Positions 22,778 through 50,658 of a stretch of 64,000 bases of DNA are shown here, piece after piece. The stretch lies in NCBI GenBank assembly GCA_964243265.1, contig CAXTFY010000001.1, forward strand, positions 15,556 to 79,555. The letters are read 5' to 3'. A program made the translations under genes and the position numbers. Source of the DNA: an uncultured Acetobacteraceae bacterium (GTDB lineage: Bacteria; Pseudomonadota; Alphaproteobacteria; Acetobacterales; Acetobacteraceae). Under the pieces are notes generated by a model. That model was not told the origin of the DNA. It was given only the letters and a program-made list of their open reading frames with translations, and searched no databases. The number at the start of each line of letters is the position of its first letter. Positions within the stretch are counted from its first letter, which is position 1.

Positions 22778-23004
22778 CGACCCACCCGGCCCGCCGGCGG
22801 CTGCAGGTCAACGCCCTGCATAGCGTGCTGCTGGTGGTGTTGGCCGTCATGGTGGTGTGGACGCTGATCCGCGGCACCTCCGTCAAGGTGAGCTTCGGGC
22901 CGCCGAAGGCGCCGGCGCCGGCGCTGTATTGCGCGAAGGACCCATGGCTTGCGGGGCCGGAGTTCATCCCCTGCCGCGACCGGCGAGACGCGCCGTGGAC
23001 ATGA
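22774..23004 (+). CDS. small membrane protein
   Basis: ATGA overlap. 'VLLVVLAVMVVWTLI' TM segment. 76 aa. Confidence 0.4.
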   Translation: MTTHPARRRLQVNALHSVLLVVLAVMVVWTLIRGTSVKVSFGPPKAPAPALYCAKDPWLAGPEFIPCRDRRDAPWT

Positions 23005-23558
23005 GCCTTCACGCGGCGCCGGAGTATGGCGATCCCGTCGGTCCCGAAGACTCCTTTTACCCGGCCGCCGAAGGCGAGCTGGAGCCGGGCGCGATCGCGG
23101 CCCGCCTGGTCGCCGACGTCGAGGATTTCGCCGAGGTCCGGATGGGTGAGCCATCCATCGTGTTCCTCATGCGCGCGAATGAGAAGCTGAAGGCCGGCCG
23201 GCGCGTCCTCGGGATGATGGCCACGGTTCGGTTTCAGGGCGAGCTGGGGCCGATCGCGGAATGGATGCTTGCCAAGCTGTGCGGGGGCCTGCCCGATTAC
23301 ATCATGGTCCTGGACGCTGCCTGGTGGGTCCAGGCGGCGCCGATGCAGCGCGAGGCGCTGGTGTTCCACGAGCTATGCCATGCCGAGCACGCGCGCGGCC
23401 GGGATGGCGAGCTGAAGTTCACCGAGGCCGGGCTTCCGGTGTGGGGCATCGTCGGGCACGACCTTGAGGAGTTCCATCGGGTCGCGGCGCGGTATGGAGC
23501 CTGGTCGCCCGACATCGTGAGCTTCATCGCGGCGTTGCAAGCCGGCAACGCGATCTAG
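23001..23558 (+). CDS. putative phage metallopeptidase (HExxH)
   Basis: 'ALVFHELCHAE' zinc motif. Sits just upstream of the terminase genes, as in the 'putative phage metallopeptidase' family. Confidence 0.55.
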   Translation: MSLHAAPEYGDPVGPEDSFYPAAEGELEPGAIAARLVADVEDFAEVRMGEPSIVFLMRANEKLKAGRRVLGMMATVRFQGELGPIAEWMLAKLCGGLPDYIMVLDAAWWVQAAPMQREALVFHELCHAEHARGRDGELKFTEAGLPVWGIVGHDLEEFHRVAARYGAWSPDIVSFIAALQAGNAI

Positions 23559-28471: not shown

Positions 28472-30280
28472 ATGACCGACAAGCCCTTTTCCGTCGCATT
28501 CGACCCCGCGGCCCCGGTAGGCGAGCGTTTTGACGCCGGCTCCGAGATGCAGGCGACCTATGCGCCCACCGCCTCCGAGCTGATCCCGCGCGGCGACCTG
28601 ATGCCCATTATCGACATGATCCGCGGGGACATGGCCGAGACGGCGCTCGTAAAGGCGTCCGGGTCGATCGCGGGCTACCCTGGCGAGCACGGCCCCAAGA
28701 AGATCGACGGCCGCGGCATGACCTCGGTGTACCTCGACAATCTGCAGATTTACCTGTCGGGCAATACCTATGAAAAGCCCGCCCCGCTGGGGTTTGAAGG
28801 CCTCCGGCAGATGGTGGACCAGACCCCCATCCTGTCGGCAATCGTGATGACCCGCATCCGGCAAGTGTCGCGGTTCTGCCAGCCGTCCGAGGATGGCGGC
28901 CCGGGCTACGAGATCCGCCACGTCGATCGCAAGCACGAGCTGACGCCGGAGGAGGAAGTGAGCACGCGCCTGCTGTCTCGCTTCGTGGCCAACTGCGGCT
29001 GGGAGTTCAACCCGCGGCGCCGCAAGGCCATGAAGCGCGAGTCGTTCACCCGGTTCATGTCCAAGCACCTGCGCGATTCCTTGACTATGGACGCGGCGCC
29101 GGTCGAGACCGAGATGAAGCGCGACCGCTCGCTGGGCATCGACGGGTTCTACGCTGTCGATGGGTCCACCATTCGCCTGTGCACCGATGAGGGATATGAC
29201 GGCGACGACTCCATTTACGCCCTGCAGATGATCCAAGGTCGCATTTGCACGGCCTATACCCAGGATCAGCTTATCTATGAGGTGCGCAATCCACGGTCGG
29301 ATGTTCGCCTAGCTGGATATGGGTTGGGCGAACCGGAGCTTTTGATCCGGGTAGTGACTGGCATCTTGAATGCCATGTCGTACAACATTGCCGGCTTCGA
29401 TAACAACGCCATTCCGAAGGGCCTGTTGCACCTCTCCGGCGACTATGACCAAGCCGACCTGGCAGCGTTCAAGCGGTATTGGAACGCACAAGTAAAAGGC
29501 ATCAACAACGCCTGGTCGTTGCCGGTGATGATCTCGAAGGACCAGGAGAGCAAGGCGAATTTCGAGAGCTTCGGCGTCGAGCATAATGAGATGCACTTCG
29601 CCAAGTGGATGACGTTCCTATGTAGCATTTGCTGCGCCATCTATGGAATGTCGCCCGACGAAATAAATTTCGAGAGTTTCGCCGCGCAGAAATCGAGCCT
29701 GTCCGGCTCGGACACCGAGGAGAAGCTGACCAACGCCAAGGATAGCGGGCTGCACCCGGACATGGCGCACCTCGAAGCCGAGATGTCGGACTTCATTATC
29801 AGCGAGTTCGATGACAAATTCTGCTTCCGATGGGTCGGCACCACGCCGGAGGACGCAGACCGGGTGTGGGAAGGTAAGAAGCTCACATACACCGTCGATG
29901 AGCTTAGGGCGGAGCAGGGCTTGCAGCCGCATCCGGATGCCAAGGTGGGCGCGCTGCCGCTCAACCCCACCCTGATCGGGCCGGCGATGCAACTTAACCA
30001 GCCGCCGAAGCCGGGCGGCGACTTCGGCGGGCAGGCGCAAGAGCCAGGGCAGGACTTCGGCAACGCCGACGACGGCGACGATCCGGCCGGCGATGACCAG
30101 GCCGGGGGCGAGGCGAACGGCACCGGCGACCCGTCCCAGGCGGGGCCTGACGGCGTGCCGACCGGTCCGGCCCCTGCTGGTCCACCGGCCGCAGCCGGGG
30201 CGCCTGGCGGCGACTACGGCGGTCCTGGCAAGGGGGATTTCGGCAAAGCCATGGGCCTGACCATCTACGCGGTTGGCTAG
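28472..30280 (+). CDS. portal protein
   Basis: 602 aa, in the position after the terminase. Core region 'AIPKGLLHLSGDYDQADLAAFKRYWN...' with an acidic Gly/Pro/Asp-rich C-tail typical of portals. Confidence 0.75.
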   Translation: MTDKPFSVAFDPAAPVGERFDAGSEMQATYAPTASELIPRGDLMPIIDMIRGDMAETALVKASGSIAGYPGEHGPKKIDGRGMTSVYLDNLQIYLSGNTYEKPAPLGFEGLRQMVDQTPILSAIVMTRIRQVSRFCQPSEDGGPGYEIRHVDRKHELTPEEEVSTRLLSRFVANCGWEFNPRRRKAMKRESFTRFMSKHLRDSLTMDAAPVETEMKRDRSLGIDGFYAVDGSTIRLCTDEGYDGDDSIYALQMIQGRICTAYTQDQLIYEVRNPRSDVRLAGYGLGEPELLIRVVTGILNAMSYNIAGFDNNAIPKGLLHLSGDYDQADLAAFKRYWNAQVKGINNAWSLPVMISKDQESKANFESFGVEHNEMHFAKWMTFLCSICCAIYGMSPDEINFESFAAQKSSLSGSDTEEKLTNAKDSGLHPDMAHLEAEMSDFIISEFDDKFCFRWVGTTPEDADRVWEGKKLTYTVDELRAEQGLQPHPDAKVGALPLNPTLIGPAMQLNQPPKPGGDFGGQAQEPGQDFGNADDGDDPAGDDQAGGEANGTGDPSQAGPDGVPTGPAPAGPPAAAGAPGGDYGGPGKGDFGKAMGLTIYAVG

Positions 30281-33200
30281 GGTGGGCAAGCCCGCAGCAC
30301 CGGTGCCGGGGATCGAGCGCGGCGACCATGTGTACGTCCAGCACCCCAAGCGCGGCGCGATGGCGGTGAAGGTGTTGGCGACCGGCAAGGACGGGTTCAC
30401 CGGGGAGGACGGGGCGAAGCGGCGGCACAAGCTCAACTTCGACTCGTACGTCGGCCACAAGACGCGGATGCTGCACACGTACAACCTGGTGGACCAGGGC
30501 GCCGACGGCGCGCTGCTGCAAGACGGCCGCGGGCAGCGGCGCTACCTGGCCGGCGTGCTGCCGGCAGCCGTCCAGGACGACGGCAAGGAAGCTGACCCGC
30601 ATCCGGACGCGCCGGCGCCGGGCCGCCAGGATGATCCGCTGAAAGGTGGCCTGTCGTTGTTGAAGGCGTCCGCCCTGCAGCTACAGGCGGGGACGGACAA
30701 GGCCGGGCACGCCATCCACCGGTGGCACGGCCGCCCGGTGTTCCCGCAGCCGCAGCGGATGATGGACCCCGCCGCGCCTGACTATGCGCCGGGCGGCCGA
30801 TACCTCTCCATGCCCACGCGGGAGGACATCACGGGCCGCACGGTGGGCCGGGCGCGGATCTCGGTCGGCGACGACGGCAAGCCCAGCTTCGGCGTGTCCG
30901 ATGACCAGGTCGAGCCGGCCGCGCCGGCGCACGGCAAGGTCGTCCGCACCAACCTGTTCAAGCGCGCGGCGGGCTGGAGCTGGACGCACCGCGACGACGG
31001 CGTTCCGGACGTGAGCACCATCGTCAGCGTCGAGCACGGCGGCCAGCACCACTACACCCTAGCAGCCGATTTCCACGACGGCGTGACCCTGGCGCGCTAC
31101 CCCAAGGCCCCGAGCGAGCCGCGGCTTCGGCCGACCACGCACGGGCACATCACGATGCCCGGGCATGAGGTCGGCCGCATCTCTGTCCGCGGCCGGGAGC
31201 ACCCGGTCCATTCGACCATCGCGGTCCACCGCGGCGGCGGCGCCTCGCTTGCAAAGTCATTTCACCTCGCCGGCCTGGTGCCGGTCCAGGTCGAGGAGCT
31301 ATCCGACATGCCCGGCCCTATGATCCTGTTCACGAAGGCCATGGGCACGCCCGTTGCCAATCGGCCGGGCTTGGCCTTGAAGCGCGTGACCGACAAGGGG
31401 GGGCACCAGACCCAGCGGTGGAGCAAGACGGGCGTTGACATGCCGGCCGGCAAGAAGCCGGCCGCCGGCGAACCGGACGCGCCACCTCCGGCCCCGATGA
31501 AGCACGGCGACGTCGTGAGCTTCCGCCATGGCGAGGTGCAGGGGCAGGGCAAGATCGTCGGCAGCGGGCAGGACGGCGTGACGGTGCGCGACGGGGAGCG
31601 TGAGCACCAGGTCCGGCACGAGCACCTTGAAGGCAAGGCGCCGGACGCGCCGGCGAAGGTGCTGCAGCGGCCGGACTACGCCCCGCGCGCGACGGGGGAG
31701 GACGATAAGAAGTACCTCAAGCGGACCGCCAGCTCGATCCCGGACCCGGAGCACCTGCCGGAGGAGCACGACCGGTATTTCAACCAGGTCGAGGGCGGCA
31801 AGACGGTCCCGATGGACCAGCTTGTGAGCACCAAGTCCGATGCGGAGAACGAACAGGGCGGCAACAACTCGCCGAAATTCATGGGCGCGGCGTACCATGG
31901 CGTTGTGGCCAAGCGTGACCCCATCACGGTCAAGCAGCGGCCGGACGGCAAATACGATGTCATGGACGGCAACGGCACGTACACCGGGGCCAAGAAGCAC
32001 GGTTGGAAGAACCTGCCAGTTCGCGTCGAGGGCGGCGGCGGGGATGATGCCGGCGGAGCTGGCGCGGCGCCGCCCAACCCTCCGCCACTGTTCCCGGCGG
32101 CCGAGGTTGCTGACCTGCCGGAGCTGGGGGAGCAGAAGTTCAACACGCAGGACGCGCTGTACAAGGCGAGTGCTGAGTCGCTGGAGCACCTGAAAACCTG
32201 GCTGAACCGCGGCAAGGGCGTCTGCTCGAAGATGGGTTTCGAGACGATGACGTGCTCGCCCGAGGATGCGGACCTCACCAAGCCCGGCGGGATGTTGTTC
32301 GTTGCGCCATTGAAGGGTGCCAAGCGCGCGAAGGAGAAGGTGGACTCCGCCTATGACGGCGACTGGTCGAAGCTGCGCGACGTGGTGCGCTGCTCCATCG
32401 CCGTGGACAGCATGGACGACATCACCGACGCCCTGACGCAGTTGAAGGCGTCCGGGATGCTGCTGGCGCAGCAGCCGAAGGACAGGTTCCACCGGCCGCT
32501 GCCGGTGGGCTACAGGGACGTGCAGCTCATCGTCCGCTTCCCGAACGGGTCGTTGGGCGAGGTGCAACTCCACCTCAAATCCATGCTGATCGCCAAGGAT
32601 GAGGGCCACAAGCACTACGAAACCATGCGGACGCTTGAAACCAGGCCGCCGGGCGAATGGAACACGGAGGAAACCACCTCGTATGACGGCGCGGTGGAAG
32701 CATCCAAGGCAATCTACGGCCAGGCGTGGGCGAAGTCGGCCGGCAAGCCCGCGGACAAGGGCACGCCGATGGCCAAGGCATTGAAGGTGTCGCCCGGCAT
32801 GGCGGCGGCGTGGGAGCACTATGACCTGGACGGCGCTAAGTACCGCCGACCGGGGCCGCGCGGTGCGATCACCGACGTTCTGAACGGCGATAAATGGGCG
32901 CCGTTCACCGGCGACGACGCGACCGAGCCGCACGTCTTCGGCGACCCCATTGATGACCCGCTGGCAGGCGGCGGCGGCGAGCCTGATGGCAGCGGGGGCG
33001 AGCCGGACACCGGCGGCGGGGGTGAGCCGATGGCCAAGGCGTTGAACCAAGCGGCTCACCGGGCCATGCCGATCCTGTTCTTGAAGGCGACGATCCCCGG
33101 TGGTGCACGCGGGGACCTGTTCGCGCAAAGCGTTCAGGTTGCCGGGCATTCCACCGCGGCCGGAACCTATGTGGCGCCCTACCAGGCCCAGCGCATGAAG

Positions 33201-34187
33201 GCGCCGGACGCGCCGCGGCCGATGCCGAAGGACGACGGCGCGTGGCACACCGCGATGCAGGCGAAAATGAAGGGGCTGGGCGACCACGCGCTGCACTACA
33301 CCGCCAACGACGCACGCCTGGCGGCGGAGGCGGCCGAGACTTTTAGCGGCGCCGGCGCCGGCCGGCATCGAGACGAGGCGAGCTACGCGCGGGCGGAAAT
33401 CGTCGCGCGCCGGCGGGGTGAAAGCACGGCTCCGCCGTCGTTCGCGGCGTTGGAGCAGGCGGCGGGCGGGCGTGCCATGGCGGCCCGCGCGTGGGCCAAG
33501 CTACGCCACAACCCCATGCCGTCCGCGCCGCAAGGGCTAGGGGCCTGGGGCCACGCCACGGGCCAGGTCTTCACGGATGCGGAGCACGACGCCAACGTGC
33601 GCCAGTGGGACCAGCAGGAAGGGGCTACCAGCCTGGCGGCGGCAGCCCAGCCCGCCATGGACATGCGCCCGGTGCCCGTCGCACCAGCGGCGCCGGAGCT
33701 GGTGCACGCCTCCTATGGCCTGCCGGAGGCCTCCACCTTCCACGAGGGCAAAGGGCCGCTAGGGCGGGGCCGCTGGCGGGCGGACGTGCCGGGGCATGGC
33801 TTCGCACCGTTCGGCGCGAACCGGGCGGAGGCGGCCCGTGCGGCGCTAACGTTCGTGTCCAATTCGACCCACAACAAGGACGCGGCCACGGCCCGGCATC
33901 ACCTGGACAAGGACATTGCCATCCGGGTGCGGGCGGGCCTGGATCTGGATGACGCCGACCTGCGGCATCTCGGCTTCCGGCCGGGCAAGGCGTCCGAGTT
34001 TTCCTACCTGTCGCCCGTCATGCAACGCCTGTTCGGCGTCCCGGCGCGACACGTCCGGGAGGCGATGGGCGATGCACTGCGCCGGACCCATTCCGAGATG
34101 GGGGCACCCAAGGATGTGGCCTCGCCGACGAAGGCGCTAAAGCGGGTCGCCGAGTACCTGGCCCGGGTCGAGAAGCTGCGCGGCTGA
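30273..34187 (+). CDS. 1304-aa polyvalent virion-type protein (ParB-like plus RelA/SpoT-like NTase plus three ILFLKA-type modules)
   Basis: ParB/Srx-like 'PITVKQRPDGKYDVMDGNGTYTGAKKHGWKNLPVRV' (about 31800-32030). RelA_SpoT-like 'LRDVVRCSIAV...GYRDVQLIVRFPNGSLGEVQLH...HKHYE' (about 32180-32640). Modules at aa 127, 350 and 932. Start is TTG 30273 or GTG 30282. Confidence 0.7.
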   Translation: MARVGKPAAPVPGIERGDHVYVQHPKRGAMAVKVLATGKDGFTGEDGAKRRHKLNFDSYVGHKTRMLHTYNLVDQGADGALLQDGRGQRRYLAGVLPAAVQDDGKEADPHPDAPAPGRQDDPLKGGLSLLKASALQLQAGTDKAGHAIHRWHGRPVFPQPQRMMDPAAPDYAPGGRYLSMPTREDITGRTVGRARISVGDDGKPSFGVSDDQVEPAAPAHGKVVRTNLFKRAAGWSWTHRDDGVPDVSTIVSVEHGGQHHYTLAADFHDGVTLARYPKAPSEPRLRPTTHGHITMPGHEVGRISVRGREHPVHSTIAVHRGGGASLAKSFHLAGLVPVQVEELSDMPGPMILFTKAMGTPVANRPGLALKRVTDKGGHQTQRWSKTGVDMPAGKKPAAGEPDAPPPAPMKHGDVVSFRHGEVQGQGKIVGSGQDGVTVRDGEREHQVRHEHLEGKAPDAPAKVLQRPDYAPRATGEDDKKYLKRTASSIPDPEHLPEEHDRYFNQVEGGKTVPMDQLVSTKSDAENEQGGNNSPKFMGAAYHGVVAKRDPITVKQRPDGKYDVMDGNGTYTGAKKHGWKNLPVRVEGGGGDDAGGAGAAPPNPPPLFPAAEVADLPELGEQKFNTQDALYKASAESLEHLKTWLNRGKGVCSKMGFETMTCSPEDADLTKPGGMLFVAPLKGAKRAKEKVDSAYDGDWSKLRDVVRCSIAVDSMDDITDALTQLKASGMLLAQQPKDRFHRPLPVGYRDVQLIVRFPNGSLGEVQLHLKSMLIAKDEGHKHYETMRTLETRPPGEWNTEETTSYDGAVEASKAIYGQAWAKSAGKPADKGTPMAKALKVSPGMAAAWEHYDLDGAKYRRPGPRGAITDVLNGDKWAPFTGDDATEPHVFGDPIDDPLAGGGGEPDGSGGEPDTGGGGEPMAKALNQAAHRAMPILFLKATIPGGARGDLFAQSVQVAGHSTAAGTYVAPYQAQRMKAPDAPRPMPKDDGAWHTAMQAKMKGLGDHALHYTANDARLAAEAAETFSGAGAGRHRDEASYARAEIVARRRGESTAPPSFAALEQAAGGRAMAARAWAKLRHNPMPSAPQGLGAWGHATGQVFTDAEHDANVRQWDQQEGATSLAAAAQPAMDMRPVPVAPAAPELVHASYGLPEASTFHEGKGPLGRGRWRADVPGHGFAPFGANRAEAARAALTFVSNSTHNKDAATARHHLDKDIAIRVRAGLDLDDADLRHLGFRPGKASEFSYLSPVMQRLFGVPARHVREAMGDALRRTHSEMGAPKDVASPTKALKRVAEYLARVEKLRG

Positions 34188-34191
34188 TGCC

Positions 34192-35199
34192 GTGATCCTG
34201 CTCAAGGCCCTGATCCCGGCGCACGATCGCCACCTCCCCGACGGCCGGCCGGTGCCTGTCCGGGCCTACACCCGGCGGTCGGCGCCGGCCGCGGCGCACG
34301 CGACCCCGCCCGTGGTGTCGTATTCGAGCGGCGCCAGCTCGCGCGCGCACCTCGAAGGCTACATCCACGCCGGGTCGCCCGTGGGGGTCAGCCTGACCGA
34401 GTTCGCCGACGGCTCGCCGACCTGGGACATGGTGGTAAACTACGCCCGGGCAGGCGGCGCCGTGTTCGTGGACAGCGGGGCCTTTCCCGCCTTCACGAAG
34501 GGGCAGGCGGTCGATTGGGACCGCCACGCCGACCTGGTCGCCAAGCTGTGCGACGACGCGGCCGGCGGCCGGCTGCATGTGATGATGCCCGACGTGATCG
34601 GCGACCAGGATGCCTCGATGCGCCTGCTGCAACAGCGGCGCGGCCAGGTCCTCGATGTCATCGCCGGCGACCATGATGCCCTGGTCGCCATCCAACGCGG
34701 CCAGCTATCGCCGCGGGACTGCTGGCGCAAGGCCGCCTCCATCCTCGGCACCCGCGACTTCACGGCCGCGGTGCCATCCAACAAGGCCGCCTTCACGCCG
34801 GCGGATGTCGCCGACCTGATGCGCGGCCCGGACCGGCCGGACCGGGTGCATTTCCTGGGGGTGGCGGGCAACCTGCGCAAGCTGGCGGCGCTGGCGGCGA
34901 TCGTGCACCAGGCGCACCCCGGTTGCGTGGTGACGTCGGACGCCAACCGCATCAGGGCAAAGGTGGGGGAAGGGCGGCCGATGACGGCCGCGCGGAATGC
35001 CATGATGACGCTGATGCGCGACATGCACGTTCTGCTCGATGACCCCGAACACAAGCGGATGTGGCTGGAGCAGCACGAGCGGGCCGCCGGGCCAGCCGCA
35101 ACCGGCATGGCCGTCATCCTAACGGAGGCGGCGGACCGCCGGCAGCCGGACCTGCTGACCGGCACGCCGCTGCGCAAGGCGCTGCGGCGGCCTGGCTAG
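34192..35199 (+). CDS. TGT/DpdA-like (tRNA-guanine-transglycosylase fold) protein with ILLKA-type N-terminus
   Basis: 'AVFVDSGAF' (compare TGT 'TDSGGFQ') and, about 130 aa later, 'RVHFLGVAGN' (compare TGT 'RYLMGVGKP'). GTG start. N-terminus 'VILLKALIPAHDRHLPDGRPVPVRAYTRR'. Confidence 0.45.
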   Translation: MILLKALIPAHDRHLPDGRPVPVRAYTRRSAPAAAHATPPVVSYSSGASSRAHLEGYIHAGSPVGVSLTEFADGSPTWDMVVNYARAGGAVFVDSGAFPAFTKGQAVDWDRHADLVAKLCDDAAGGRLHVMMPDVIGDQDASMRLLQQRRGQVLDVIAGDHDALVAIQRGQLSPRDCWRKAASILGTRDFTAAVPSNKAAFTPADVADLMRGPDRPDRVHFLGVAGNLRKLAALAAIVHQAHPGCVVTSDANRIRAKVGEGRPMTAARNAMMTLMRDMHVLLDDPEHKRMWLEQHERAAGPAATGMAVILTEAADRRQPDLLTGTPLRKALRRPG

Positions 35200-37012: not shown

Positions 37013-38224
37013 ATGGCCGTGCTGCTGATCGACGTGGGCGACGTGCCGGCGTGCCACTGCGACGATGCGCTGGAAGGCATGTACAAGGCGCTGGCGGAAT
37101 CGCCGGATGGCGACGACCGGAGCATTTGGGCGCCGCACCCCAACCCCTTCCTGACGGAACACGTCGAGGACGTGACCCAGCGGTTCCAAGCCATCCTGGA
37201 GCGCATCCAGGACATCATCGCCCGGCTGCTGACCGGGGAGCCGATCGGCACCCTGGCGAAAGCCGACGTGCCCTGGATGCGGTGGGAGCCGGAGCAGTTC
37301 GAGACGGTCCGCCTGATGCTGGAAGCCAAGGCCCCGGCGCTTTACACGCTGGACGATTGGATGCTGGTCGCCGACTACCTGATCCAGCGATACCTGCCCG
37401 ACGCCGTGATCCAGAACGAAAGCGAGTACCTGACGGTGCGCGCCTCGATCCTGGGGAAGATCCAGGCTGGCGCCGGCATGACACCGCCCACGCCGGACAT
37501 GATGCAAGTTTGGTCCACGCTGACGCCCACGCTGTTCGCCACCGTTCCGGCCCGCGTATTGAGCACGTTGGAGCTGGAGATCATGCACGTTGCCAAGACA
37601 AGGGCGGCGCTGCACATCGGGTCGGTGACGGAGAGCATCCGCGCCCGGATGAAGGAAATCATCGTCCAGCACGTCCAGGCGCAGATCCTCGGGCAAAAGG
37701 AAGGGCAGGCGACCGCGCTCCGTTCGGCGCTATTCGACCAGTTCGGCAAGCTGAACCGCGACTTTCGCCGGATTGCCGTCACCGAGGCGGGGGAGGCTTG
37801 CAACACCGGCTACATCTCGGCCCTGCAGCCCGGCACCCGGGTCCGGCGGGTGGAGGCGTACCGCGGGGCCTGCCCGTTCTGCCAGTCGATCAACGGCCAG
37901 GTTTACACCGTCATCTCGCCCGACGATCGCCGCACATTGGACGTGAGCGGGCCAGATCATTACGTTTGGGTGGGCAAAAGCAATGTAGGCCGCTCCGCCT
38001 CGCCGAACCGTCGCGTGGGCAACGAGTTGGTCGCGCGCTTGCCGTTCGAGTGCTGGTGGTGCGCCGCCGGCGTCATCCACGCGCATTGCCGCGGCTGCTG
38101 GGTGACGCTGACGGAGGCTGCCGCGAACGTGGCGCCCGCGTTCGCCGCCTGGATGGGCGGGCTGCTCGCCCAGCACCGCGCGGCCCTGGCGGTCAACGAC
38201 CCGGTGCCGGACCTGCCGGACTAG
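37013..38224 (+). CDS. MuF-like / SPP1 gp7-like head morphogenesis protein
   Basis: 'FRRIAVTEAGEACNTGYISAL...GACPFCQSINGQVYTV' is the Phage_Mu_F signature. Confidence 0.75.
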   Translation: MAVLLIDVGDVPACHCDDALEGMYKALAESPDGDDRSIWAPHPNPFLTEHVEDVTQRFQAILERIQDIIARLLTGEPIGTLAKADVPWMRWEPEQFETVRLMLEAKAPALYTLDDWMLVADYLIQRYLPDAVIQNESEYLTVRASILGKIQAGAGMTPPTPDMMQVWSTLTPTLFATVPARVLSTLELEIMHVAKTRAALHIGSVTESIRARMKEIIVQHVQAQILGQKEGQATALRSALFDQFGKLNRDFRRIAVTEAGEACNTGYISALQPGTRVRRVEAYRGACPFCQSINGQVYTVISPDDRRTLDVSGPDHYVWVGKSNVGRSASPNRRVGNELVARLPFECWWCAAGVIHAHCRGCWVTLTEAAANVAPAFAAWMGGLLAQHRAALAVNDPVPDLPD

Positions 38225-41997: not shown

Positions 41998-43290
41998 ATG
42001 TCCCAGCATGGCACCCCGATCCTGTTCCTAAAGGCGATCATCCGCGGCGGCGCGGCCGGCGACCTGTTCGGCACGACCGTCGAGGTGGCCGGGCACACGC
42101 GGGACGGCAAGTATGTCGCGCCCTACAGCGCGACCCGGCAAAAGGCCGCTCCGAAGCCTCCAGCCCCTAAGCCGCCGGCGAAAGCCGAGTGGGAAGGCCG
42201 GCCCGTCGCATACGGCCACCTGGCGACCATCGAACACGAGGGGGTCAGCTACAAGGCAAGCCTGCACAAGCGACCCACGGGCCATCGCTGGCACCTCTCC
42301 ACCGCGGGGGAGAAAAGCGGACCCATCGGGCACAACATGTACCACTCGGGCACTCGCACGCTCGGCAGCGCCGTCGATTACCTCCGGGGCCTCATCAAGC
42401 ACGGGGAGCTGACCGTGCATCCCGACGGGCCGCCCGGGGCGACGCCGGCGGCGGTAGCAGCGCCGGCGAAGGCCAAGGCTGCGCCAGATCCGGCGGACCT
42501 GGCCGAATTGCGGCCCCAGCCGGCGCACCTGGTCGAGATGCGGGCCAAGTTGGCGACGCTGAAGAAGCAACGATACCCGGGCGCGTCAGGCGAGTTCCTG
42601 ACCAAGCTGTATGGCGCCCGCCTGGCGGCTGATCCCTCACGCTGGAAGGTCGGAATGGGCGTGCGCTACCCGGTCGCCGGTGGTGGCAAGGGTGCGCAGT
42701 GGAACCGCGGTTTTCGCATCGTCGATGTGTCGCCGGACGACAAGATGGCGCTGCTGCGGATGGTGCGCGACACCGGCCTCACCACGTCGGGCGGCAACGA
42801 CGACCGGATAGATGACGTCTGGGTTTACATGGGGGAGTTGGTGCGGGAGCGGTCGGGGGACTCCCCTGCACCCGCTCCCGCGTCGAACCCAGCGGTTCGC
42901 CGGACACCGTCGCACGTCGCTGATGAGGGGCTTGCAATCGCCCCGGAGATCCCGTCACAGGTCATCGACTACGTCAAGCGCGCCCTGGCCTCACTGGCGG
43001 ACGTGCGCGCGACCATGGACAGGCATCGCTCGGAATCCGACGTCCGCACCGGGCACCAGGGCGAGGCCGGGCTTTACTACCACCACGGGGACGAAGCCCA
43101 GCGCCACATCGCCGCCGCCCATGCCAGCCTGGCGAAGGTGCGGAACATGGCCGAGGCCAAGGGCATCGACTTCGATGCCGTGCTCGCCAGCCTCGGCGGT
43201 GTGACCGACACGACCCCCCTGCAGCCGCCGGCCGGCTGGGTTGACGCCGAGAACCATTACCAGCGGCGGGACCTGCCCAGCTCAAATTGA
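41998..43290 (+). CDS. ILFLKA-module protein with cargo of unknown function
   Basis: N-terminus 'PILFLKAIIRGGAAGDLFGTTVEVAGHTRDGKYVAPYSATRQK', then a Pro/Lys linker, then about 370 aa with no motif I recognise. Confidence 0.6.
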   Translation: MSQHGTPILFLKAIIRGGAAGDLFGTTVEVAGHTRDGKYVAPYSATRQKAAPKPPAPKPPAKAEWEGRPVAYGHLATIEHEGVSYKASLHKRPTGHRWHLSTAGEKSGPIGHNMYHSGTRTLGSAVDYLRGLIKHGELTVHPDGPPGATPAAVAAPAKAKAAPDPADLAELRPQPAHLVEMRAKLATLKKQRYPGASGEFLTKLYGARLAADPSRWKVGMGVRYPVAGGGKGAQWNRGFRIVDVSPDDKMALLRMVRDTGLTTSGGNDDRIDDVWVYMGELVRERSGDSPAPAPASNPAVRRTPSHVADEGLAIAPEIPSQVIDYVKRALASLADVRATMDRHRSESDVRTGHQGEAGLYYHHGDEAQRHIAAAHASLAKVRNMAEAKGIDFDAVLASLGGVTDTTPLQPPAGWVDAENHYQRRDLPSSN

Positions 43291-44216
43291 GCGTCCTGTT
43301 CTTCAAAGCGATCATCCGCGGCGGCGCCCATGCCGACTTGTTCGCAACCCCCGTCACCGTCGCCGGGCACACGACGGCCGCGGGCACCTACGTCGCCCCA
43401 TACACCTCGATCAGGCACAAGGCGCCGGCCCCCCTGGTCGCCGACCTGCCGGACCTGCATCCGGAGCCGGAGCCGGAGGCGGAACCCTGCATCTTCTGCG
43501 GCGAGCCGGAGCGCGTGTCCGTGCACGAGGCATGGGGCCATGACTTCATGCTGGACTGCTGCTGCGAGGCCCGGCGTGACTTCGCGGTGCAAGAGATGGC
43601 CGAAGATCCGGACTATGCGCGCCAGCTCCTGGAGGCAAGCGGCGTCGGCCCGCTGCGCCGGGTGGCATTCACCGATGAGGGGTTCGGCCAGGTGCTCCTG
43701 GACTTCGAGCCACGCATTGCGCCGATCAGCCGCGCCGACGCCAACGCCTTCATCGGCCGATGGCACCGGCACAACCCGCCGCTGCCGGCGGACCTGTTCC
43801 GCGCGGGCGTCTGGAATGGGTCAACCCTGCTCGGCGTCGTCATGGCCGGTGCCCCGACGGCCCGGGCCTATATGCCGCAGTTCGCCGCGCGGGAGCTGTG
43901 CGAGGTGCGCCGGCTGTGCATCCGCACCGACCTGCCGCGTGAGCTGACCTGGCGGGCAGCCTCGGCGCTGTACGGCTATGCGGCGGAGCAGGCGGCAGCC
44001 CGCGGGTATCGCAAGATCATCACCTACACCCTCGCCTCGGAAGCGGGGATGAGCCTGCGCTACGCGCGCTGGAAGCCGGAAGCCACAATCCGCGGCAAGA
44101 CCTGGAATACGCCGAGCCGGCCGCGCCAGGACCGCGGCCCGGTCGAGGCCAAGGTCCGTTGGTTCAAGAAGCTCTCGCCGGCGCCGGTGACGCTGATGCT
44201 GCGCACGGCGGCCTGA
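43287..44216 (+). CDS. ILFLKA-module protein with GNAT-like (XF1762-family-like) domain
   Basis: TTG start in a TTGA overlap. 'VLFFKAIIRGGAHADLF..VTVAGHTTAAGTYVAPY'. Cys cluster 'CIFCG...DCCCE'. 'RWHRHNPP...LLGVVMAGAPTAR...EVRRLC...GYRKIITYTL..EAGMSLRYARW...KVRW'. Confidence 0.55.
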   Translation: MSVLFFKAIIRGGAHADLFATPVTVAGHTTAAGTYVAPYTSIRHKAPAPLVADLPDLHPEPEPEAEPCIFCGEPERVSVHEAWGHDFMLDCCCEARRDFAVQEMAEDPDYARQLLEASGVGPLRRVAFTDEGFGQVLLDFEPRIAPISRADANAFIGRWHRHNPPLPADLFRAGVWNGSTLLGVVMAGAPTARAYMPQFAARELCEVRRLCIRTDLPRELTWRAASALYGYAAEQAAARGYRKIITYTLASEAGMSLRYARWKPEATIRGKTWNTPSRPRQDRGPVEAKVRWFKKLSPAPVTLMLRTAA

Positions 44217-44231
44217 TCGAAGCCCTCCGGC

Positions 44232-44254: not shown

Positions 44255-47200
44255 ATGCTCCAGCACCCGCCCGTCGTCCTGTTTCTCAAGGCCACCATCC
44301 CGGGCGGTGCAGGCGACCTGTTCGCGCTGCCGGTCCAGGTTGCGGGCTACACGACACCTGACGGCACCTATGTTGCCCCGCACACGGCCATCCGGCACAA
44401 GCGGACCACCCTCCCGGCCGCCGCGCCAAAGGCCGCAGCGGTGGACCTGTTCGCCCATGCCGATGCGGCTGCTGCCCCCCCCAAGCCTGCGGGCAAAGCC
44501 AAGCCCAAGGCTGACACGGGGCCGGACCTTTTCAGCGCCATCTTGCACCCACCGGCGCCTGCCAAGCCTGCCAGCGAAGTTGCGGCCGCAACCGCAAAGC
44601 CGCCCGCGGTAGTAGAGTCCACACCCGCCTCCGGTCCGGCAGGGCTACGCACGGCAGCCGTTGGCGACGTGCTGGAAATCGACCTGCCTTACAAGAGCCG
44701 GTCGGTGCGCGCCCGGGTGCGGGTGGTCGAGCCGACATACCGGGATCACCGGGGCAGCGTCGTCCTGCTTGAGAAGCCGCCCCGCACGACGCTGGAGGTC
44801 GGCCGGACGCACCACGTCGATCAAGCCGTGGTCAATGCTGGGACGCTGCTTTCCGTCACCCCCGCCCTCACGGCTGCCGAGCTGGCGCAAGTTGCGTCGG
44901 CGGTCGCGCCAGCCCCCGCCCCGGCGCAAGCTGCGCCGGTCGGCGCACCTGCGGAGCTGGCAACCTTCGGGGTCGAGGCCGGGATCTCCGAGCCTGCCCG
45001 TCGCGCCCTGAATGCCGCCGCTGTCGCGGTGCTGACCAGCAAGCCCGATGCGGACATGACGGACGGCGACCGCGCGGTGCTGGCGCGCTACAGCGGCACC
45101 GGGGGATGCGGTGCCAGTCGCAACGAGTTCTACACCACGCCGGCGATCGCCCGGGCGATGTGGAGTCTGTTGGACCGCGCCGGGTTCCACGGCGGCGAGG
45201 TCTTGGAGCCGAGCTGCGGCACCGGCGTCTTCTTGCACACCGCGCCCCCTGGCGCGCATGTCGTCGGCGTCGAGATGGACCCGATCGGCGCCCGGATCTC
45301 CGGTATCCTGCACCGCCCGGCCGGGCATGAGGTCAATGCCGGAACGCTGGAAGCCTTCGCGCAAGGCGATGGGCGCCTGTTTGATGCGGTGATCGGCAAC
45401 CCGCCCTTCGGCATCCGCGGCGGCTCGGCCGGCGACGACAAAAAGAGCATTGCCAGCGCCGAGGACTATTTCCTCGATACCGCGCTGGACAAGCTCCGGA
45501 GTGGCGGCCTTCTAGCCATGATCGTGCCAACTGGCGTCATGGACGGCAAGGCCGGGCGCGGCTTCCGCGAGGCCCTGCTGTGCAAGGGGGAGTTCCTTGG
45601 TGGGTCGCGTTTGCCAAACACCGCATTCGAGGCGTCGCATACCGCTGTGACGTCCGACGTGCTGCTGTTCCGCCGGCGTCCGCAAGAGGTCGCCGGCGCG
45701 CTGTCAACCGTGGATCAGGACGTGCTGCAGCAGCTCGGCGTATGGGATGAGGAGTTCTTGTCCGGGTCCTATTTCGTCGCCGGCCGCGGCGCCGCCAACA
45801 TCCACGGCAACTTGGAACCCGGGTGGCGCGAAAAAGCCAACATGGGCCACGACATCACGGTGTCTGGTTCGATGGTGGGTGTGCCCGACGCCGTGCGTGA
45901 CATGCCGATCGAGGCGCCGGCGCCGTCTCCGGACATGGCAACCGTGCTCGCAGCCCTCGGCGACGACGATACGGCCAAGCGTCGGGCGGTCTCGGCCGCG
46001 CTGCGCCCTCCCTATCAAGTGGCCAAGCTCGGCGACGTGCAAACCGTGGACGGCATCCGGTACGTCCTGCAAGGCGAGCCGCCGCGGTGGCACCGCGCCG
46101 ACGAGGACCTGCCGCCGGCGGTCGCCGACGCGCTCGGCATCGCCGAGGTGCTGGAGGACCTGCACGAGGGCCGCGCGGCTGACCCGGCGATGGCCCGCGC
46201 GGGCCTGATCGAGGATCTTGACGCCTACGTGGGCAAGCACGGCACGCCAGGCCGCAGCAAAGCCCTGCGCGCCTGGCTCGCCAAGCCCTCTATGCCCAAC
46301 CTGGACGGGGTCGGCGGCAACGAGCACGGCGAGCGCGTCAACAGTGCCTACCGTCGCGTTGCGCGGCTGCTGGGCGCCGTCGGCGACGATGGCGGCTACT
46401 CCGACCTCGTGACCGGCGTGACCCGCCAGGCGGACGCGGCAAGCCTGGATACGATGGCCACCCGCCTGTCCCTCGAACGCGGCGGCTTCACCGCCGAACA
46501 GCTCGCCGCGGTCACGGGGGGGACAGCCGACCAGGTGCTAGACCACCTGTTCGCGTCCCCGGCCTACGCGGTCGAGCCGGACGGCCGCACTTGGAGCACG
46601 TTGGACTCCTACGTGTCCGGCGCCCTGTGGCCGAAGTTCGATGCCGCCACCGAAGCGGCGGCGACGCCCGGCGCCGACCCGGCGCTGGTGGCGAAGTGGG
46701 CCAGCCAAGCCGCGGTGCTGGACGCGGCGATCGCGCCGGCCTCGCTGGAGGACGTGGAGATCGCGCTCAACAGCGGCTTCATCCAGCCGGCGGTCATCAA
46801 TGCCTGGTTCCAAGCCCAGGAGGAGGCGCGTCGCGCCAAGCAGGGCAGGTATGGCCCGCAGTTCAACGTGGCCGAGCTGGAATACAAGGACGCGCTGTGG
46901 TCGGCCAAGGACGGCCGCGGCGTCAACGTCGGCGACACCCGGCTGATCCTCACCTTCCTCAACCGGACCGGCGTGCGCAAGGTGGACCGCGCAAAGCTGG
47001 TGCGGCTGAATGCGGAGTTTGCCGATTGGGTGCGCGGCTCGGACCTGCGGCAGTCCGTCGAGGACGGGTATAACCGCACCCACAAGGGTTTCATTGCGCC
47101 GGTGTTCTCCGACAAGCCCATTGACATACCCGGTCTAAACCCGCCATTCTCGGTTAATAATTACCACTGGTCGGGCCTTCGCTGGGCAATGCAGGCGGGC

Positions 47201-50200
47201 AGCGGCATTGTTGCCGATGATGTCGGGTTGGGCAAAACGCCTCGTGGCCTGATGCTTTCTAAACTTATGCAATCGACCGGTCAGGCGAAAAAGCCGGTTA
47301 TTGTCGTTCCGAAGTCGGTACTGGCGAATTGGGTCAAGGAAGCCGAGCAATGGTTCCCTGGCGCGAAAATCCTGGTCATCGGCGAAACCTACAAGACGGA
47401 CAAGGCCGGCAACGTTACCTCGAAGTCTGACGATGCCGAGACGCGGCAGGAGAAGTTCCACAACCTCCAACAAAACAGCCATGACTTCGTTTTCATCTCG
47501 CAACCCGCGTGGAACGAGCTGGACGTTAGCCCGGACCTCAAGGCGGGCTACCAGAGCGACGATTTCTGGACCCAACGTGGCGAAGCCATGGCCAACGCCA
47601 AGGCCTCCAAGATCGAGCGCGCCCGCGCGGCCGATGAACAGCGCGTTGCGGTCAAGGAGTTCGAGAGCCGGGAAGGCACGGTTTACTTTGACGAGTTGGG
47701 CATAGACGCGCTCATCATGGACGAGGGCCACGCCTATAAAAACCTGTATTCTGCCCGTGCTCGGTTCGGCGAAAAGCCGAAGTTCCTGGGCGGCTCCGGC
47801 GAAAGCAACCGGGCACAAGATACCTACTACAAGACCCGGGCATTGCGGTCCAAAAACGGCGGCAAGGGCGTTTTCATGCTGACGGCCACGCCCACGAAAA
47901 ACTCGCCGTTGGAAATTTACTCGATGCTGGCGCAGATCGCGCCGGAGGCCTTCGAGAAAATGGGCATCCGCAACTCGGAAGCCTTCCTAGACCGGTTCTG
48001 CGAGTTCTCGATGGACATGGTGCCGACCATTGATGGCGGCGTGGACGAGGAGCTAGTGACCAGCGGCTTCAAGAATTTGGACGAGCTGCGGGAGGTGATG
48101 AAGCGATACATCGACCGGCGGACCGCGGCTGACGTGGGCCTGGTGATCCCCAAGGGGCTGCCGGTCGATCACTACGTCGATATGTCCCCGGCGCAAGAGG
48201 AAGCCTACCAGGAGTTGCGGGCGCAGTACGCGGCCGTCGCCGACGGCACCGCCGACGCCACCGGCGAAAGCCATATCTTCTCGATCATGAATCGCATGGG
48301 CAAGGCGTCGCTGGACCTGTCCCTGCTTGACCCGTCCTACCATGGCGAGCGTGCGCCGAAGGTCGATGCCTGCGTTGATGCGGCGATCGAGCACGCCGGC
48401 GACGGCGGCCAGATCATCTTCTGCGACGCCAACGACATGCACGAGCGGATTGCCGCCTCCCTGGTCGCCCGCGGCGTGCCGCGCAACCGCATCGGCATCA
48501 TCAACGCGACGGCCGCCGAAGGGTCGGCCGCACGGCAGAAAATCTGCGACCAGTTCAACTCGGGCAAATTGGGCTACGTGATCGGCAACACGGCGACGAT
48601 GGGCGAGGGCGTGAACCTGCAAAAGGGCACCTCGGACATCCATCACCTCGATCTGCCATGGGAGCCGGCGTCCATGCACCAGCGCAACGGCCGCGGGGTC
48701 CGGCAGGGCAACAAGAAGGGCAGCGTGCGCCTGCATACCTACCTCGCCAAGGGCAGCTTCGACGGCTACCGCCTCGCCACGATGATGGCGAAAAAGGACT
48801 GGCAGGACTTGCTGTGGAACGGTGGCGACAAGGTCGAGAACCTGTCCCGCTCCGGCGCAAACTCCCGCTCGGAAGTGCTGATTATGATGTCCGCCAACCC
48901 GGACGAAGCCCGCAAGGCGTATGATGCGAACAAGTCAGCCGCGGTGGAGCGCCGGCGTGCCGAGGATCGCGGCCAGGCGATCGCGGCATTCGACCGCTTC
49001 GATAAGATGGGCCGCGCGCTGGCGAAGCTGCGCGCGGAGCAGGACCCCTTGAAGGTGCAGGCGGGCGCGATCGCGCGCCTGGAAAAGAAGCGGCAGGTGC
49101 TTCATGGCGCGCTGCGCGACCTGCCGGCCTTCACGCATAAGGATCTGCTGGACCATCCGCACCCGGCCGTCATCGAGCCGGTGACAAACCATGCGTGGAC
49201 GCGCGGGCGCGGCCTCGTGCTGCACGGCGGCAGCGAGGGGCCGGCCAACTGGAGCGAGGACGAGTCGCGCTGGGTGGTCACGGGCGTCGATGCCGACGCC
49301 GGCACGGTGTCGGTGCGGGGCTACGGCGGCAACTCGCACTCCGACCGGCCCACCCTGGACTTCGATCTAAAGGACATGAAGGCGGGCGTGACCCCATTCG
49401 ACTACAGCGAGAAGGCCGAAAAGGCGGAGGTCGCCGACGCCGACACGGCGTACCGCACCATGGTCGGACAGCGGACGGCCGCCAAGATGGCCAACCCCAA
49501 CGGGCTGGGGCTGGTCGAGATGCGCGACCTGCCGCCCGACGTGCTGGCCAACCAGGCGGACCTGGTGCGTAGCCACATGCGCCTGCAGATCGAGCGTTAC
49601 CGGGACGGGCACAGCCAAGTCTATGGCCTGACCAACCACGAAGGCCGGCCGGTGGCGGCGCAGAGTTTCGAGGTGCGCAAGCTGCTCGGCGACCACGACC
49701 TGATCCTGCCGACGCCGGACGGCCGCGCCAAGGCAGTCGAGGGCTATGTCGATGCCGCCATGCGGCGCGGCGTCGTCACGCCGACCCAAACCGGCACGCG
49801 GATGCGCAGCTACAACGGCGCCAGCATGAGCACGGCCATCAAGCCAACCTATGAAGGGTTCGAGCACAGCACCAGCACCAGCGGCAATCCCTGGGAACAC
49901 GTCATCAAGGACGTGTTCGGGGAAGACGCGACCGCCGCGCAAGCCGCCGTGCGGGAGGAGGTCAAGCGGCGCATCGACTCTGCGCCGACCTTCCGGGATG
50001 CCGTGATCGCTGCGACAAAAGGGGTGGAGGTGCCGGCCTATGGCTGGGGCACCACCAGCAAGGGCAACCCGTGGCCGGCCGACGTCGTGCGCAGCCTAGC
50101 GGCCCGGGCGGCGAAGGATAAGGTGCTGGATTGGGACATGCACAAGGCGGCCAAGCCGTCGCAAAGCAGCTACAAGCCGGACCTGCATCCGGAGCTGTTG

Positions 50201-50329: not shown

Positions 50330-50658
50330 TGCCAGCGATCGACATGGCCAAGACGCTGAACACCGTGCTGCACCAGCTCCAGGGCGACCCCATCCGCTAC
50401 CGGCTGTTCGGCATCTACTGGTGGCCGGTCAAGCTCCTGCTCAAGCGCGCCGGCTACGGCCGTCACCAGCTTTACCTGCTTGGCGACTACCAGGACGCGG
50501 GCACGGCTGACCTGGTGCCGCGCATGAACCTGCAAGACACGATGACGGCTGCGTTGGAGGAGTTCCGCCGCAACGCCATCTTCCCGCACGCCGGCGGCAT
50601 GGTCGAAAGCCCGGACGGCGAAATGGTCCGCCTGTTCGATCAGGATGCCGGCATGTAG
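50329..50658 (+). CDS. hypothetical protein
   Basis: TGATG junction with the 2024-aa gene. 109 aa. Confidence 0.5.
   Translation: MPAIDMAKTLNTVLHQLQGDPIRYRLFGIYWWPVKLLLKRAGYGRHQLYLLGDYQDAGTADLVPRMNLQDTMTAALEEFRRNAIFPHAGGMVESPDGEMVRLFDQDAGM

Follow-up and report, generated by a model that had tools for sequence, protein, structure and literature searches.

A Tas1-like synthetase domain in a polyvalent-type phage protein encoded behind the portal gene, with a candidate role as a capsid-delivered toxin

What kind of protein does a phage encode in 1304 residues directly behind its portal gene, and how might such a protein act? The question is raised by a 64,000-nucleotide stretch of DNA from an uncultured Acetobacteraceae bacterium (contig CAXTFY010000001.1, positions 15,556 to 79,555; hereafter the window), where an initial annotation had noticed ParB/Srx-like and RelA/SpoT-like domains inside a protein of this length next to the portal. 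The open reading frame (ORF) does adjoin a portal gene, and both domain calls survive the profile searches and the alignment of catalytic residues by which that annotation had proposed to be judged: Asp, Arg, Tyr and Glu-x-Gln all align. The ORF is most likely a phage 'polyvalent' cargo protein, with a RelA/SpoT-homologue (RSH) core that is a 3'-pyrophosphokinase of the Tas1/Apk branch. On balance we favor the view that the protein is a capsid-delivered toxin of this kind. The data show which domains are present, how far their motifs are conserved, and the synteny and fusions; enzyme product, inhibition, packaging and ejection, proteolytic processing, biological role and any gain for the phage are what we infer. 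The parts on which the argument turns are as follows.

28472..30280, plus strand: portal protein gene, directly upstream of the 1304-residue ORF (PHROG portal, E 1.8e-34)
30273..34187, plus strand: 1304-residue multi-module (polyvalent-type) ORF, starting at TTG 30273 or GTG 30282
31740..32063, plus strand: ParB/Srx-fold module, residues 490-597, with DGNGT replacing the Arg motif of ParB
32145..32762, plus strand: Tas1-like RSH synthetase (3'-pyrophosphokinase) domain, residues ~625-830
32769..32972, plus strand: fused copy of a ~70-residue RSH-partner protein, residues 833-900 (alignment A3)

For the RSH domain, evidence from profiles, structure and motifs agrees. A phmmer search of residues 480-830 against all PDB chains gave Tas1 as best match (E 5.5e-8), and a database search returned 104 homologous clusters, several of which carry a precomputed PF04607 assignment; among them is a protein of the cultured Bordetella phage PHB04, named 'RelA/SpoT domain-containing' in UniRef. 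A profile built from 57 homologues, which are only ~35-55% identical overall, matched Tas1 in the PDB at E 2.2e-14, followed at a distance by SaEAS (0.011) and RelA (0.2), and 41 of the 57 matched PF04607 individually (E<0.01, best 8.1e-8). The AlphaFold2 model made from the family alignment has a mean predicted local distance difference test score (pLDDT) of 92.9. Compared with the PDB by Foldseek, it found Tas1 first (E 7.4e-8; template modelling score, TM, 0.69 on the target), then RelQ, RelP, SaEAS, Rel, RelA and CapRel; the top 43 matches are all RSH synthetases, as expected of the SYNTH (pol-beta-like nucleotidyltransferase) fold. Fold matches in BFVD were large phage proteins of the polyvalent type, annotated as DdrB-like, RelA/SpoT or ART-PolyVal. 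Tas1 is thus the best PDB match by sequence and by fold, which places the domain in a Tas1-type toxSYNTH relationship and fits the toxSAS-type reading of the initial annotation, the closest solved relative being a (p)ppApp-synthetase toxin.

The strings that had been read as the RelA/SpoT pattern ('GAKRAKEKV...LRDVVRCSIAV...GYRDVQLIVRFPNGSLGEVQLHLKSML...GHKHYE') lie at residues 682-783. The motif residues of the domain are K681, R685, K689, D703, R706, Y747, D749, E763, Q765, H767, K775, H779 and Y782, distributed over these elements:

K681 / R685 / K689: donor-triphosphate motif
D703: Mg-binding Asp
R706: Tas1-type Arg
Y747: acceptor-stacking Tyr (G-loop)
E763 / Q765: Glu-x-Gln
H779 / Y782: C-terminal GHKxYE

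Across the 57 sequences no variation is seen at K681, K689, D703, R706, Y747, D749, E763, K775 and Y782, and almost none at R685, Q765 and H779; K681/R685/K689, D703, Y747 and E763/Q765 align with the motifs of Tas1, RelA and the small alarmone synthetases (SAS). Because these residues align and are conserved to this degree, the RSH domain is predicted to be catalytically intact and should be an active enzyme. Some family members (P0101, P0084) are fused to NUDIX or HAD_SAK_1 domains, that is, to further nucleotide-processing partners.

The comparison with Tas1/Apk1, a (p)ppApp synthetase toxin of the type VI secretion system of P. aeruginosa (PDB 6OX6), shows what is shared and what is not. 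Both have syn1 (x-x-K-x3-R-x3-K), syn2 (D-x-x-R), the G-Y acceptor loop, E-x-Q and the C-terminal GHK-x-YE helix. Unlike Tas1, to which it is only ~22% identical, the window domain has no PAAR/Rhs delivery domain, is encoded in a phage head-island and not in a secretion system, reads D-x-(N/Q) at syn3 where Tas1 reads G-x-N, and has a partner without detectable similarity to that of Tas1 (Tis1).

A different substrate deserves consideration at this point. If the domain pyrophosphorylated the 3'-CCA end of tRNA, as FaRel2, CapRel and PhRel2 do, its effect would be to shut off host translation and not to perturb nucleotide metabolism. The option was raised in the initial annotation, and CapRel is indeed among the fold matches (E 1.2e-4); moreover, an inhibitor-like module fused to the C-terminal side of the RSH domain recalls the fused toxin-antitoxin CapRel (PMC11782079), and small alarmone hydrolases (SAHs) can also neutralise the products of tRNA-targeting toxSAS. 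The likeness to CapRel is one of architecture (an RSH toxin domain and a candidate inhibitory module on one polypeptide) and of fold. It does not extend to sequence profiles, where no member of the tRNA-pyrophosphorylating toxSAS (FaRel2, CapRel, PhRel2) was matched at E up to 1, compared with 2e-14 for Tas1, or to PADLOC, which gave no CapRel-type match. CapRel, furthermore, is a host defence protein that acts on tRNA and carries a pZFD antitoxin domain, whereas the window protein is phage-encoded, no pZFD or YXXY-type antitoxin was detected, and its fused module is an unrelated, beta-rich one without a PDB match. We give the tRNA substrate a slim chance.

Upstream of the RSH domain stands the second module seen by the initial annotation, which had recognised a ParB N-terminal domain in the string 'PITVKQRPDGKYDVMDGNGTYTGAKKHGWKNLPVRV', here found at residues 550-585. 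The interval assigned to the two domains together, 31800-32650, does lie inside them; the spacing of about 60 residues between the ParB motif and the RSH motif was an underestimate, the first RSH motif following some ~95 residues after the ParB-like motif. As to the identity of the module, the claim stands at the level of fold and falls at the level of motif. A profile of 19 copies matched SbnI (6.1e-5), Noc (1.4e-3) and ParB (0.2) in the PDB, a Foldseek search with the two-domain model found Noc at E 4.3e-4 over 96 columns, and the AlphaFold2 model of the module has a pLDDT >90. The ParB/Srx superfamily (ParB/Noc CTPase N-domains; the SbnI and SerK kinases) shares not only this fold but the strand-helix pattern '...PI.V....g.y.v.DG......a....Gw..lP..V'. 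The position of the Arg motif (GERRxRA in ParB/Noc, DGxHR in the SbnI/Srx type), on the other hand, reads DGNGT, without Arg. Pfam agrees with neither ParB family: ParB_N reaches E 0.02-0.09 on the window sequence (13.3-15.2 bits against a gathering score of 26.3), and ddrB-ParB is below threshold on the module and falls on a different segment of the homologous protein P0109. With its Arg motif missing, the window module does not appear to be a canonical ParB; it also differs in having other invariant basic residues (K535, R548) elsewhere, and in lacking a helix-turn-helix, a dimerisation domain and a ParA-coupled context.

The module has a strong signature of its own. E497, F503, K535, M537, G543, R548, V553, D565, G566 and W578 are invariant, and within DGNGT the N is kept in 165 of 175 copies and the T in 168. 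An exhaustive search recovered 569 representative clusters with the module, 197 of them at E<=1e-10; many carriers are proteins of 1000-5157 residues, while some are stand-alone proteins of ~110-190 residues. Pfam has no model for the module, and the stand-alone copies match nothing in it. Of 142 new representatives 104 contain the module together with an RSH domain, in 92 cases with the module upstream (median gap ~50 residues); most of the remaining 38 end right behind the module, and are therefore truncated or split proteins. We found no description of this coupling in the literature searched. Among portal-adjacent RSH proteins most are without the module, which is present in 9 of 55 loci. 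Because the module is mostly tied to RSH while most portal-adjacent RSH proteins do without it, it looks like an accessory to the pyrophosphokinase and not the reverse; judged by these distributions, it appears to be evolutionarily tied to this RSH clade.

This coupling invites a bolder reading, in which the DGNGT module and the RSH domain form one obligate two-domain machine with a substrate or trigger that is neither ATP nor GTP. The ParB-like module might bind a specific nucleotide, an immune signal or the ejected DNA end, and might present it to, or gate, the pyrophosphokinase. After injection the enzyme would 3'-pyrophosphorylate a signal of host defence, or else would become active only once ejected, with the fused small module as a built-in safety catch released by a protease. 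We regard this as quite unlikely. If true, it would add an anti-defence chemistry not seen before and give the ParB/Srx fold a further function.

How, then, do these modules come to stand on one polypeptide? The remainder of the ORF consists of further elements:

30294..30572, plus strand: conserved N-terminal domain, residues ~8-100, common to all portal-adjacent family members
30675..31238, plus strand: window-specific insertion, residues ~135-322 (~190 residues), rich in His, Gly and Arg
31323..31442, plus strand: internal leader-like element (MILFTKAMG...RPGLALKRVTDKGGHQTQRW), a variant at residues 351-390, kept in PHB04 and P0105
31524..31667, plus strand: second small beta-rich repeat, residues ~418-465, family-conserved (consensus in alignments A1/A2)
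33066..33218, plus strand: internal leader copy (MPILFLKATIPGGARGDLFAQSVQVAGHSTAAGTYVAPYQAQRMKAP), residues 932-982 (leader profile E 7e-17), kept in P0105
33219..34184, plus strand: C-terminal module, residues ~983-1304

The GTG at 30282 (GVG-type; 2 nt past the portal stop TAG) is more likely the start of the ORF than the TTG at 30273. Third-position GC content is 0.88 along its whole length, in a window of ~68% GC. The N-terminal domain has tblastn matches directly behind the portal in ~30 related loci, no Pfam or PHROG match, and is not MuF. The beta-rich repeat is supported by matches in related loci to the tblastn segment 'SH3b_345_480'. The insertion at residues ~135-322 has no tblastn match in any related locus and is missing from P0105, an independent homologue of 1185 residues that is 58% identical to the 1304-residue protein over 704 residues. 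The C-terminal module has no Pfam or PADLOC match, and a search of 5.8 billion proteins with residues 934-1304 yielded nothing homologous at E<=1e-3; weak tblastn relatives are encoded as separate ORFs in four related loci (L003, L024, L027 and L033). For the protein as a whole PHROGs holds no family, NCBIfam gave nothing significant, and PADLOC matched none of its modules.

P0105 is colinear with the window ORF through the ParB-like module, RSH domain, small module, internal leader and C-terminal module. Because of this colinearity we take the fusion to be genuine; an assembly or frameshift artefact is ruled out as the origin of the ORF by the same fused order in an independent protein. The ORF joins in frame a set of modules for which related phages have individual, neighboring genes. 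It combines at least two unrelated effector-type domains in one phage polypeptide (ParB/Srx-like, RSH, the small partner and the leader-headed C-terminal module), and stands close to virion genes and other polyvalent-type domains, with the portal upstream and inorganic pyrophosphatase (InPase), Mom-like, DarB-like and Ulx-like genes downstream.

In these respects it resembles the phage-type polyvalent proteins of Iyer et al. 2017 (PMC5512222), where RelA/SpoT, InPase and ParB-type domains are listed as specific to this protein type, for which injection is predicted: the multi-domain make-up, the virion-gene neighborhood and the repertoire of RelA/SpoT, ParB-type, InPase and DarB-like methylase-helicase domains are alike, and the RSH domain also occurs in relatives of 1100-4000 residues, as in polyvalent proteins. 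It differs in that its ParB-like module is not DdrB-ParB and that no zincin-like processing peptidase is seen in the ORF. The RelA/SpoT acquisitions reported in that work are from spirochaete and epsilonproteobacterial prophages, not from the high-GC PHB04-like group.

The small module directly behind the RSH domain is one of these fused modules. AlphaFold2 predicts a beta-rich fold for it (pLDDT ~90) behind a disordered linker, and it is flanked by two PMAKAL repeats and Gly-rich linkers. At the nucleotide level a ~20-nt direct repeat (CCGATGGCCAAGGC[A/G]TTGAA, coding PMAKAL) at 32766-32786 and 33026-33046 brackets the module; in relatives 'MAK...' is the start of a separate small-partner gene, and x-K-A motifs resembling PMAKAL are found at the C-terminus of the portal and ~25 residues into the 403-residue protein further downstream. 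This pattern suggests that the repeats are fusion scars or protease sites.

To place the module we compared 50 IMG/VR loci with relatives of the RSH protein. The small partner is mostly a separate ORF; it is fused in frame in the window, in L003, L010 and L053, and in 13 further database proteins. In 36 of the 50 loci with enough flank it lies <=600 nt from the RSH end, on the opposite strand in five of these. The family comprises 257 clusters, all unannotated. Because of the tight genomic linkage to RSH, the small module is a candidate cognate inhibitor (immunity protein) of the RSH enzyme. Some homologues (P0247, P0248) are tandem duplications of 131 residues.

Behind the small partner, 16 of the 50 loci, including that of PHB04, carry an HD_4 alarmone hydrolase (HD_4, E 3e-21) that is closest to Mesh1 (E 5e-36) and matches Aph1 only weakly (E 6e-4). 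In PHB04 the RSH protein, small partner and hydrolase are ATI15652, ATI15651 and ATI15650. The gene order in the PHB04-like phages (~90-115 kb) is:

first, portal
second, N-terminal domain, beta-rich repeat, (ParB-like module) and RSH domain on one protein
third, ~70-residue protein
fourth, HD_4 small alarmone hydrolase
fifth, (metallophosphatase)
then conserved ~390-residue protein
seventh, InPase
eighth, DarB-like methylase-helicase
ninth, Ulx-like protein
tenth, large helicase
last, protease and major capsid protein

The first part of this order recalls the MuF-fused Apk2 enzymes of temperate phages (PMC10083569, PMC12226406, PMC5576092). As with Apk2, a Tas1-like RSH domain is encoded in a phage head-module gene, syn2 is of the form 'R-x-T/S' and syn4 of the form 'x-H'; and as in the Apk2-IapK/Tis1-Aph1 systems, RSH, small protein and HD-domain alarmone hydrolase follow one another in those 16 loci (PMC10083569, PMC12226406). 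Unlike in Apk2, the RSH domain is internal and not C-terminal, there is an additional ParB/Srx-like module, the hydrolase of the relatives is Mesh1-like and not Aph1-like, and in the window the partner is fused in frame and the hydrolase absent; the hydrolase gene is variable even among Apk2 clusters. Having neither PAAR nor MuF, the window protein does not belong to Apk1 or Apk2. Its nearest functional parallel would be a Tas1/Apk-type toxin housed in a cargo protein of the polyvalent kind.

Whether such a protein travels in the capsid is the next question, and a feature that bears on it is a leader of ~45 residues ('..ILFLKA.I.GGA.GDLF...V.VAGHT...G.YVAPY...R.K') found at the N-terminus of several window proteins. 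Across loci its pattern is hydrophobic-LF-x-K-A/S ... LF..PV.V.GH.R.DGT.V.PH. In the loci a profile hidden Markov model detects 61 copies. With few exceptions they stand at the start of DarB-like, hydrolase and InPase-type proteins; the exceptions are internal to polyproteins, among them one in the 1304-residue ORF. In the window the copies are at 33066-33218, 34192-34280, 41998-42150, 43287-43430 and 44255-44410, and others occur at L001:10652-10735 and in further loci. The leader is clear on the 430-residue, Mom-like and DarB-like proteins of the window and degenerate on the 335-residue protein. It may be a capsid-targeting or processing signal; in principle there is a precedent, DarB of phage P1 being packaged by way of its N-terminal 30 residues (PMC9024508). 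The proteins concerned belong to an island behind the portal gene:

34192..35199, plus strand: leader-bearing 335-residue protein (leader E 9e-7; homologues in L004, L005, L019 and L039)
37013..38224, plus strand: 403-residue conserved post-portal head-island protein, ~40% identical to its homologues Dolphis gp6 and PHB04 ATI15648
38251..38790, plus strand: stand-alone polyvalent-type InPase (Pfam PF18823, E 1.2e-42)
41998..43290, plus strand: leader-bearing 430-residue protein (leader E 3e-18)
43287..44216, plus strand: leader-bearing Mom-like protein (Pfam Mom 2.6e-6, PHROG 3.8e-24)
44255..50329, plus strand: leader-bearing DarB-like N6-methylase and SNF2 helicase of 2024 residues (Pfam), like DarB of P1/P7 (leader E 6e-19)
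50329..50658, plus strand: Ulx-like anti-restriction protein (PHROG 2.1e-10), homologue of PHB04 ATI15644
50729..55345, plus strand: 1538-residue SF2 helicase-containing protein (Pfam), last in the cargo island and 52% identical to the helicase of PHB04

The RSH gene adjoins the portal in ~30 loci, and the portal upstream of it is 54% identical to the portals of phages PHB04, Dolphis and ST4. The island shares DarB-like and Ulx-like neighbors with the Dar system of phage P1, whose anti-restriction proteins are internal to the capsid; P1 differs in having no RSH cargo. The P1-Dar-like part, 43287-55345, is syntenic with PHB04. The 335-residue protein has no Pfam, PDB or PADLOC match. The 403-residue protein is kept behind the portal across the whole phage group and has no family assignment; as a candidate major capsid protein it was rejected by comparison with Dolphis and PHB04 (it is Dolphis gp6-like). 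Relatives encode the InPase as part of the RSH polyprotein (L010) or joined to DarB-like or LPD3 proteins; in a phage without an SAH, nucleotide pyrophosphates are a possible substrate for it.

Gene position, the shared leader and the literature together point to virion association and to action in the newly infected cell. The same genes could, in another reading, serve a protein that is never ejected: one that acts in the lysogen or the producing cell, in prophage toxin-immunity or exclusion, or in competition between bacteria after lysis, a possibility debated for MuF toxins. Relatives do occur as prophages in bacterial chromosomes (Methylomagnum and an Azospirillum metagenome-assembled genome), the window holds a ParA-like partition ATPase, competition and addiction modules typically pair a toxin with an immunity-like protein, and delivery of MuF toxins is itself unproven (PMC10083569). 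Yet the post-portal position is invariant in ~30 loci, within an island of DarB-, Ulx- and InPase-type genes; the island proteins, including the hydrolase, have the N-terminal leader in common, and it recurs inside the ORF; and PHB04, a lytic-looking cultured phage, has the cluster. A protein confined to the producing cell or released for competition is, on this evidence, unlikely.

Under the favored reading of a capsid-delivered toxin, the sequence of events would be as follows. The RSH core would move the beta-gamma pyrophosphate of ATP onto the 3'-OH of a purine nucleotide, the acceptors most likely being ATP, ADP or AMP and the products (p)ppApp, with (p)ppGpp as the alternative; at a toxin-like rate of synthesis ATP would be drained, and purine synthesis and growth blocked. 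The divergent ParB/Srx-fold module upstream, probably neither a canonical ParB CTPase nor a nuclease, would probably bind nucleotide or nucleic acid and regulate the enzyme. The small beta-rich module downstream, joined through its Gly-rich linkers, is the inhibitor candidate, and in many relatives, not in the window, a Mesh1-like SAH would be the third element. Because the gene sits in a P1-Dar-like island behind the portal, and the leader shared by the island's proteins recurs inside the ORF, the protein is probably packaged, whole or as cleavage fragments. It would leave the capsid together with the DNA and act soon after infection, perhaps to the benefit of the phage.

Several observations weigh against this reading. 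On the window sequence itself Pfam RelA_SpoT (PF04607) scores E 1e-3 / 1.4e-4 (19.9-22.5 bits, gathering score 27), over profile positions 8-104 of 113. At syn3 the window reads D-V-Q (D-x-N/M/L in the family), unlike both the 'GxN' of Apk and the 'SxH' of RSH. Swaps of the signature motifs left the specificity of Apk2 unchanged (PMC12226406), and Tas1-like enzymes comprise (p)ppApp-specific, dual and (p)ppGpp-specific members (PMC12691689); product specificity is not readable from homology, and motif signatures are correlative only. The window protein matches neither PAAR nor Phage_Mu_F, even at E up to 10, and a scan of the 57 members showed neither domain. The profile of the small partner gave zero matches in the PDB and has no Pfam similarity and no detectable similarity to Tis1. 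No hydrolase was found in the window, either by tblastn with the PHB04 SAH, which matched only the shared N-terminal leader on the DarB-like gene, or by Pfam, which showed no HD domain in 28 concatenated small ORFs around the gene; a Serglycin match in that scan was an artefact of the Gly-Ser linkers between them. The leader has no resemblance to the N-terminal targeting sequence of P1 DarB. Capsid (major capsid protein), protease and sheath or tail genes have no homologue anywhere in the 64-kb window. Finally, unless held in check, an enzyme that arrives as infection begins and drains ATP would damage the phage as well.

The first of these points, together with the absence of the canonical Arg motif from the ParB-like module, might be taken to mean that both segments are relics without activity, which serve as structure or scaffold in a minor head protein. 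This we find barely credible: the donor-site, Mg-binding, acceptor-stacking and Glu-x-Gln positions are invariant across the 57 sequences, dedicated hydrolase and partner genes are linked to the RSH gene, and the ParB-like module keeps its strongly conserved signature over 175 copies.

The points on specificity bear on the nature of the product. Paulet et al. 2025 contrast the 'RYT' (syn2) and 'YH' (syn4) of Apk with the 'AVR' and 'IR' of long RSH enzymes (PMC12226406), and the window, with D-V-V-R-C-S at syn2 and E-V-Q-L-H at syn4, follows the DxxR-x-S/T and L/Y-H patterns of the Apk1/Apk2 and Tas1 type and not the long-RSH type. On this basis (p)ppApp is only moderately favored as the product of the RSH domain. 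A (p)ppGpp synthetase would have a different effect once injected: in place of the draining of ATP, the host would enter a state resembling the stringent response, with its transcription and translation remodelled. Such a role for the RelA/SpoT domains of polyvalent proteins was put forward by Iyer et al. 2017 (PMC5512222). The departure from the Apk motif at syn3 fits such an enzyme, some Tas1-like enzymes yield only (p)ppGpp (PMC12691689), and the hydrolase of the relatives is nearest to Mesh1 and to Rel/SpoT hydrolase domains (E 5e-36 to 1e-16), with only a weak match to the (p)ppApp-specific Aph1 (E 6e-4). Many SAHs hydrolyse both alarmones, however, and the type of hydrolase is therefore not discriminating; the (p)ppApp synthetase Tas1 is the closest solved relative by 12 orders of magnitude, syn2 and syn4 speak for the Apk type, and the order of toxin, small protein and hydrolase equals that of (p)ppApp toxin systems. 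We consider a dedicated (p)ppGpp synthetase rather unlikely.

The rest of the window adds some context. Where PHB04 has its capsid protease, major capsid protein and tail genes behind the big helicase, the window has a minus-strand block of small ORFs (55342-61230). A ParA/MinD-type ATPase gene followed by a small overlapping ORF (62974-63914) may form a partition module, a hint that the prophage is plasmid-like. Upstream of the portal, 2637-8373 on the minus strand is an early-type block with a CxxxCxxC-like-motif protein without a Pfam match, an SMC/AAA_23-type ATPase, a PD-(D/E)XK (DUF3799) nuclease and a 460-residue protein without a match. An MT-A70 methyltransferase stands next to an N-acetylmuramidase with a peptidoglycan (PG)-binding domain at 16354-17796, two small OmpR-type winged-helix (Trans_reg_C) proteins are adjacent at 20644-21350, and an N6_N4 DNA methylase overlaps a phage metallopeptidase gene at 21391-23558.

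The functional idea that this locus suggests is reasonable and not itself new. Earlier publications describe both RelA/SpoT domains in the polyvalent proteins of phages and (p)ppApp synthetase toxins fused to MuF (PMC5512222, PMC10083569, PMC12226406), and the phage-borne, Tas1-like MuF-Apk2 toxins have been characterised biochemically, with virion packing, injection and benefit to the phage left open (PMC10083569). What is added here is of two kinds. Three elements are new: a conserved ParB/Srx-fold module that travels with RSH through hundreds of giant phage proteins and a shared leader that marks the proteins of the island, the hydrolase included, for neither of which we found a description, and the small partner, here fused. 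The family, moreover, shows the three-part arrangement of synthetase, small partner and hydrolase a second time, in an independent lineage placed directly behind the portal in a Dar-like cargo island; and its presence in PHB04, a phage in culture, makes the question of packaging and injection directly testable. If the fused small module is an inhibitor, the protein would be a phage-encoded counterpart of the fused toxin-antitoxin RSH enzymes.

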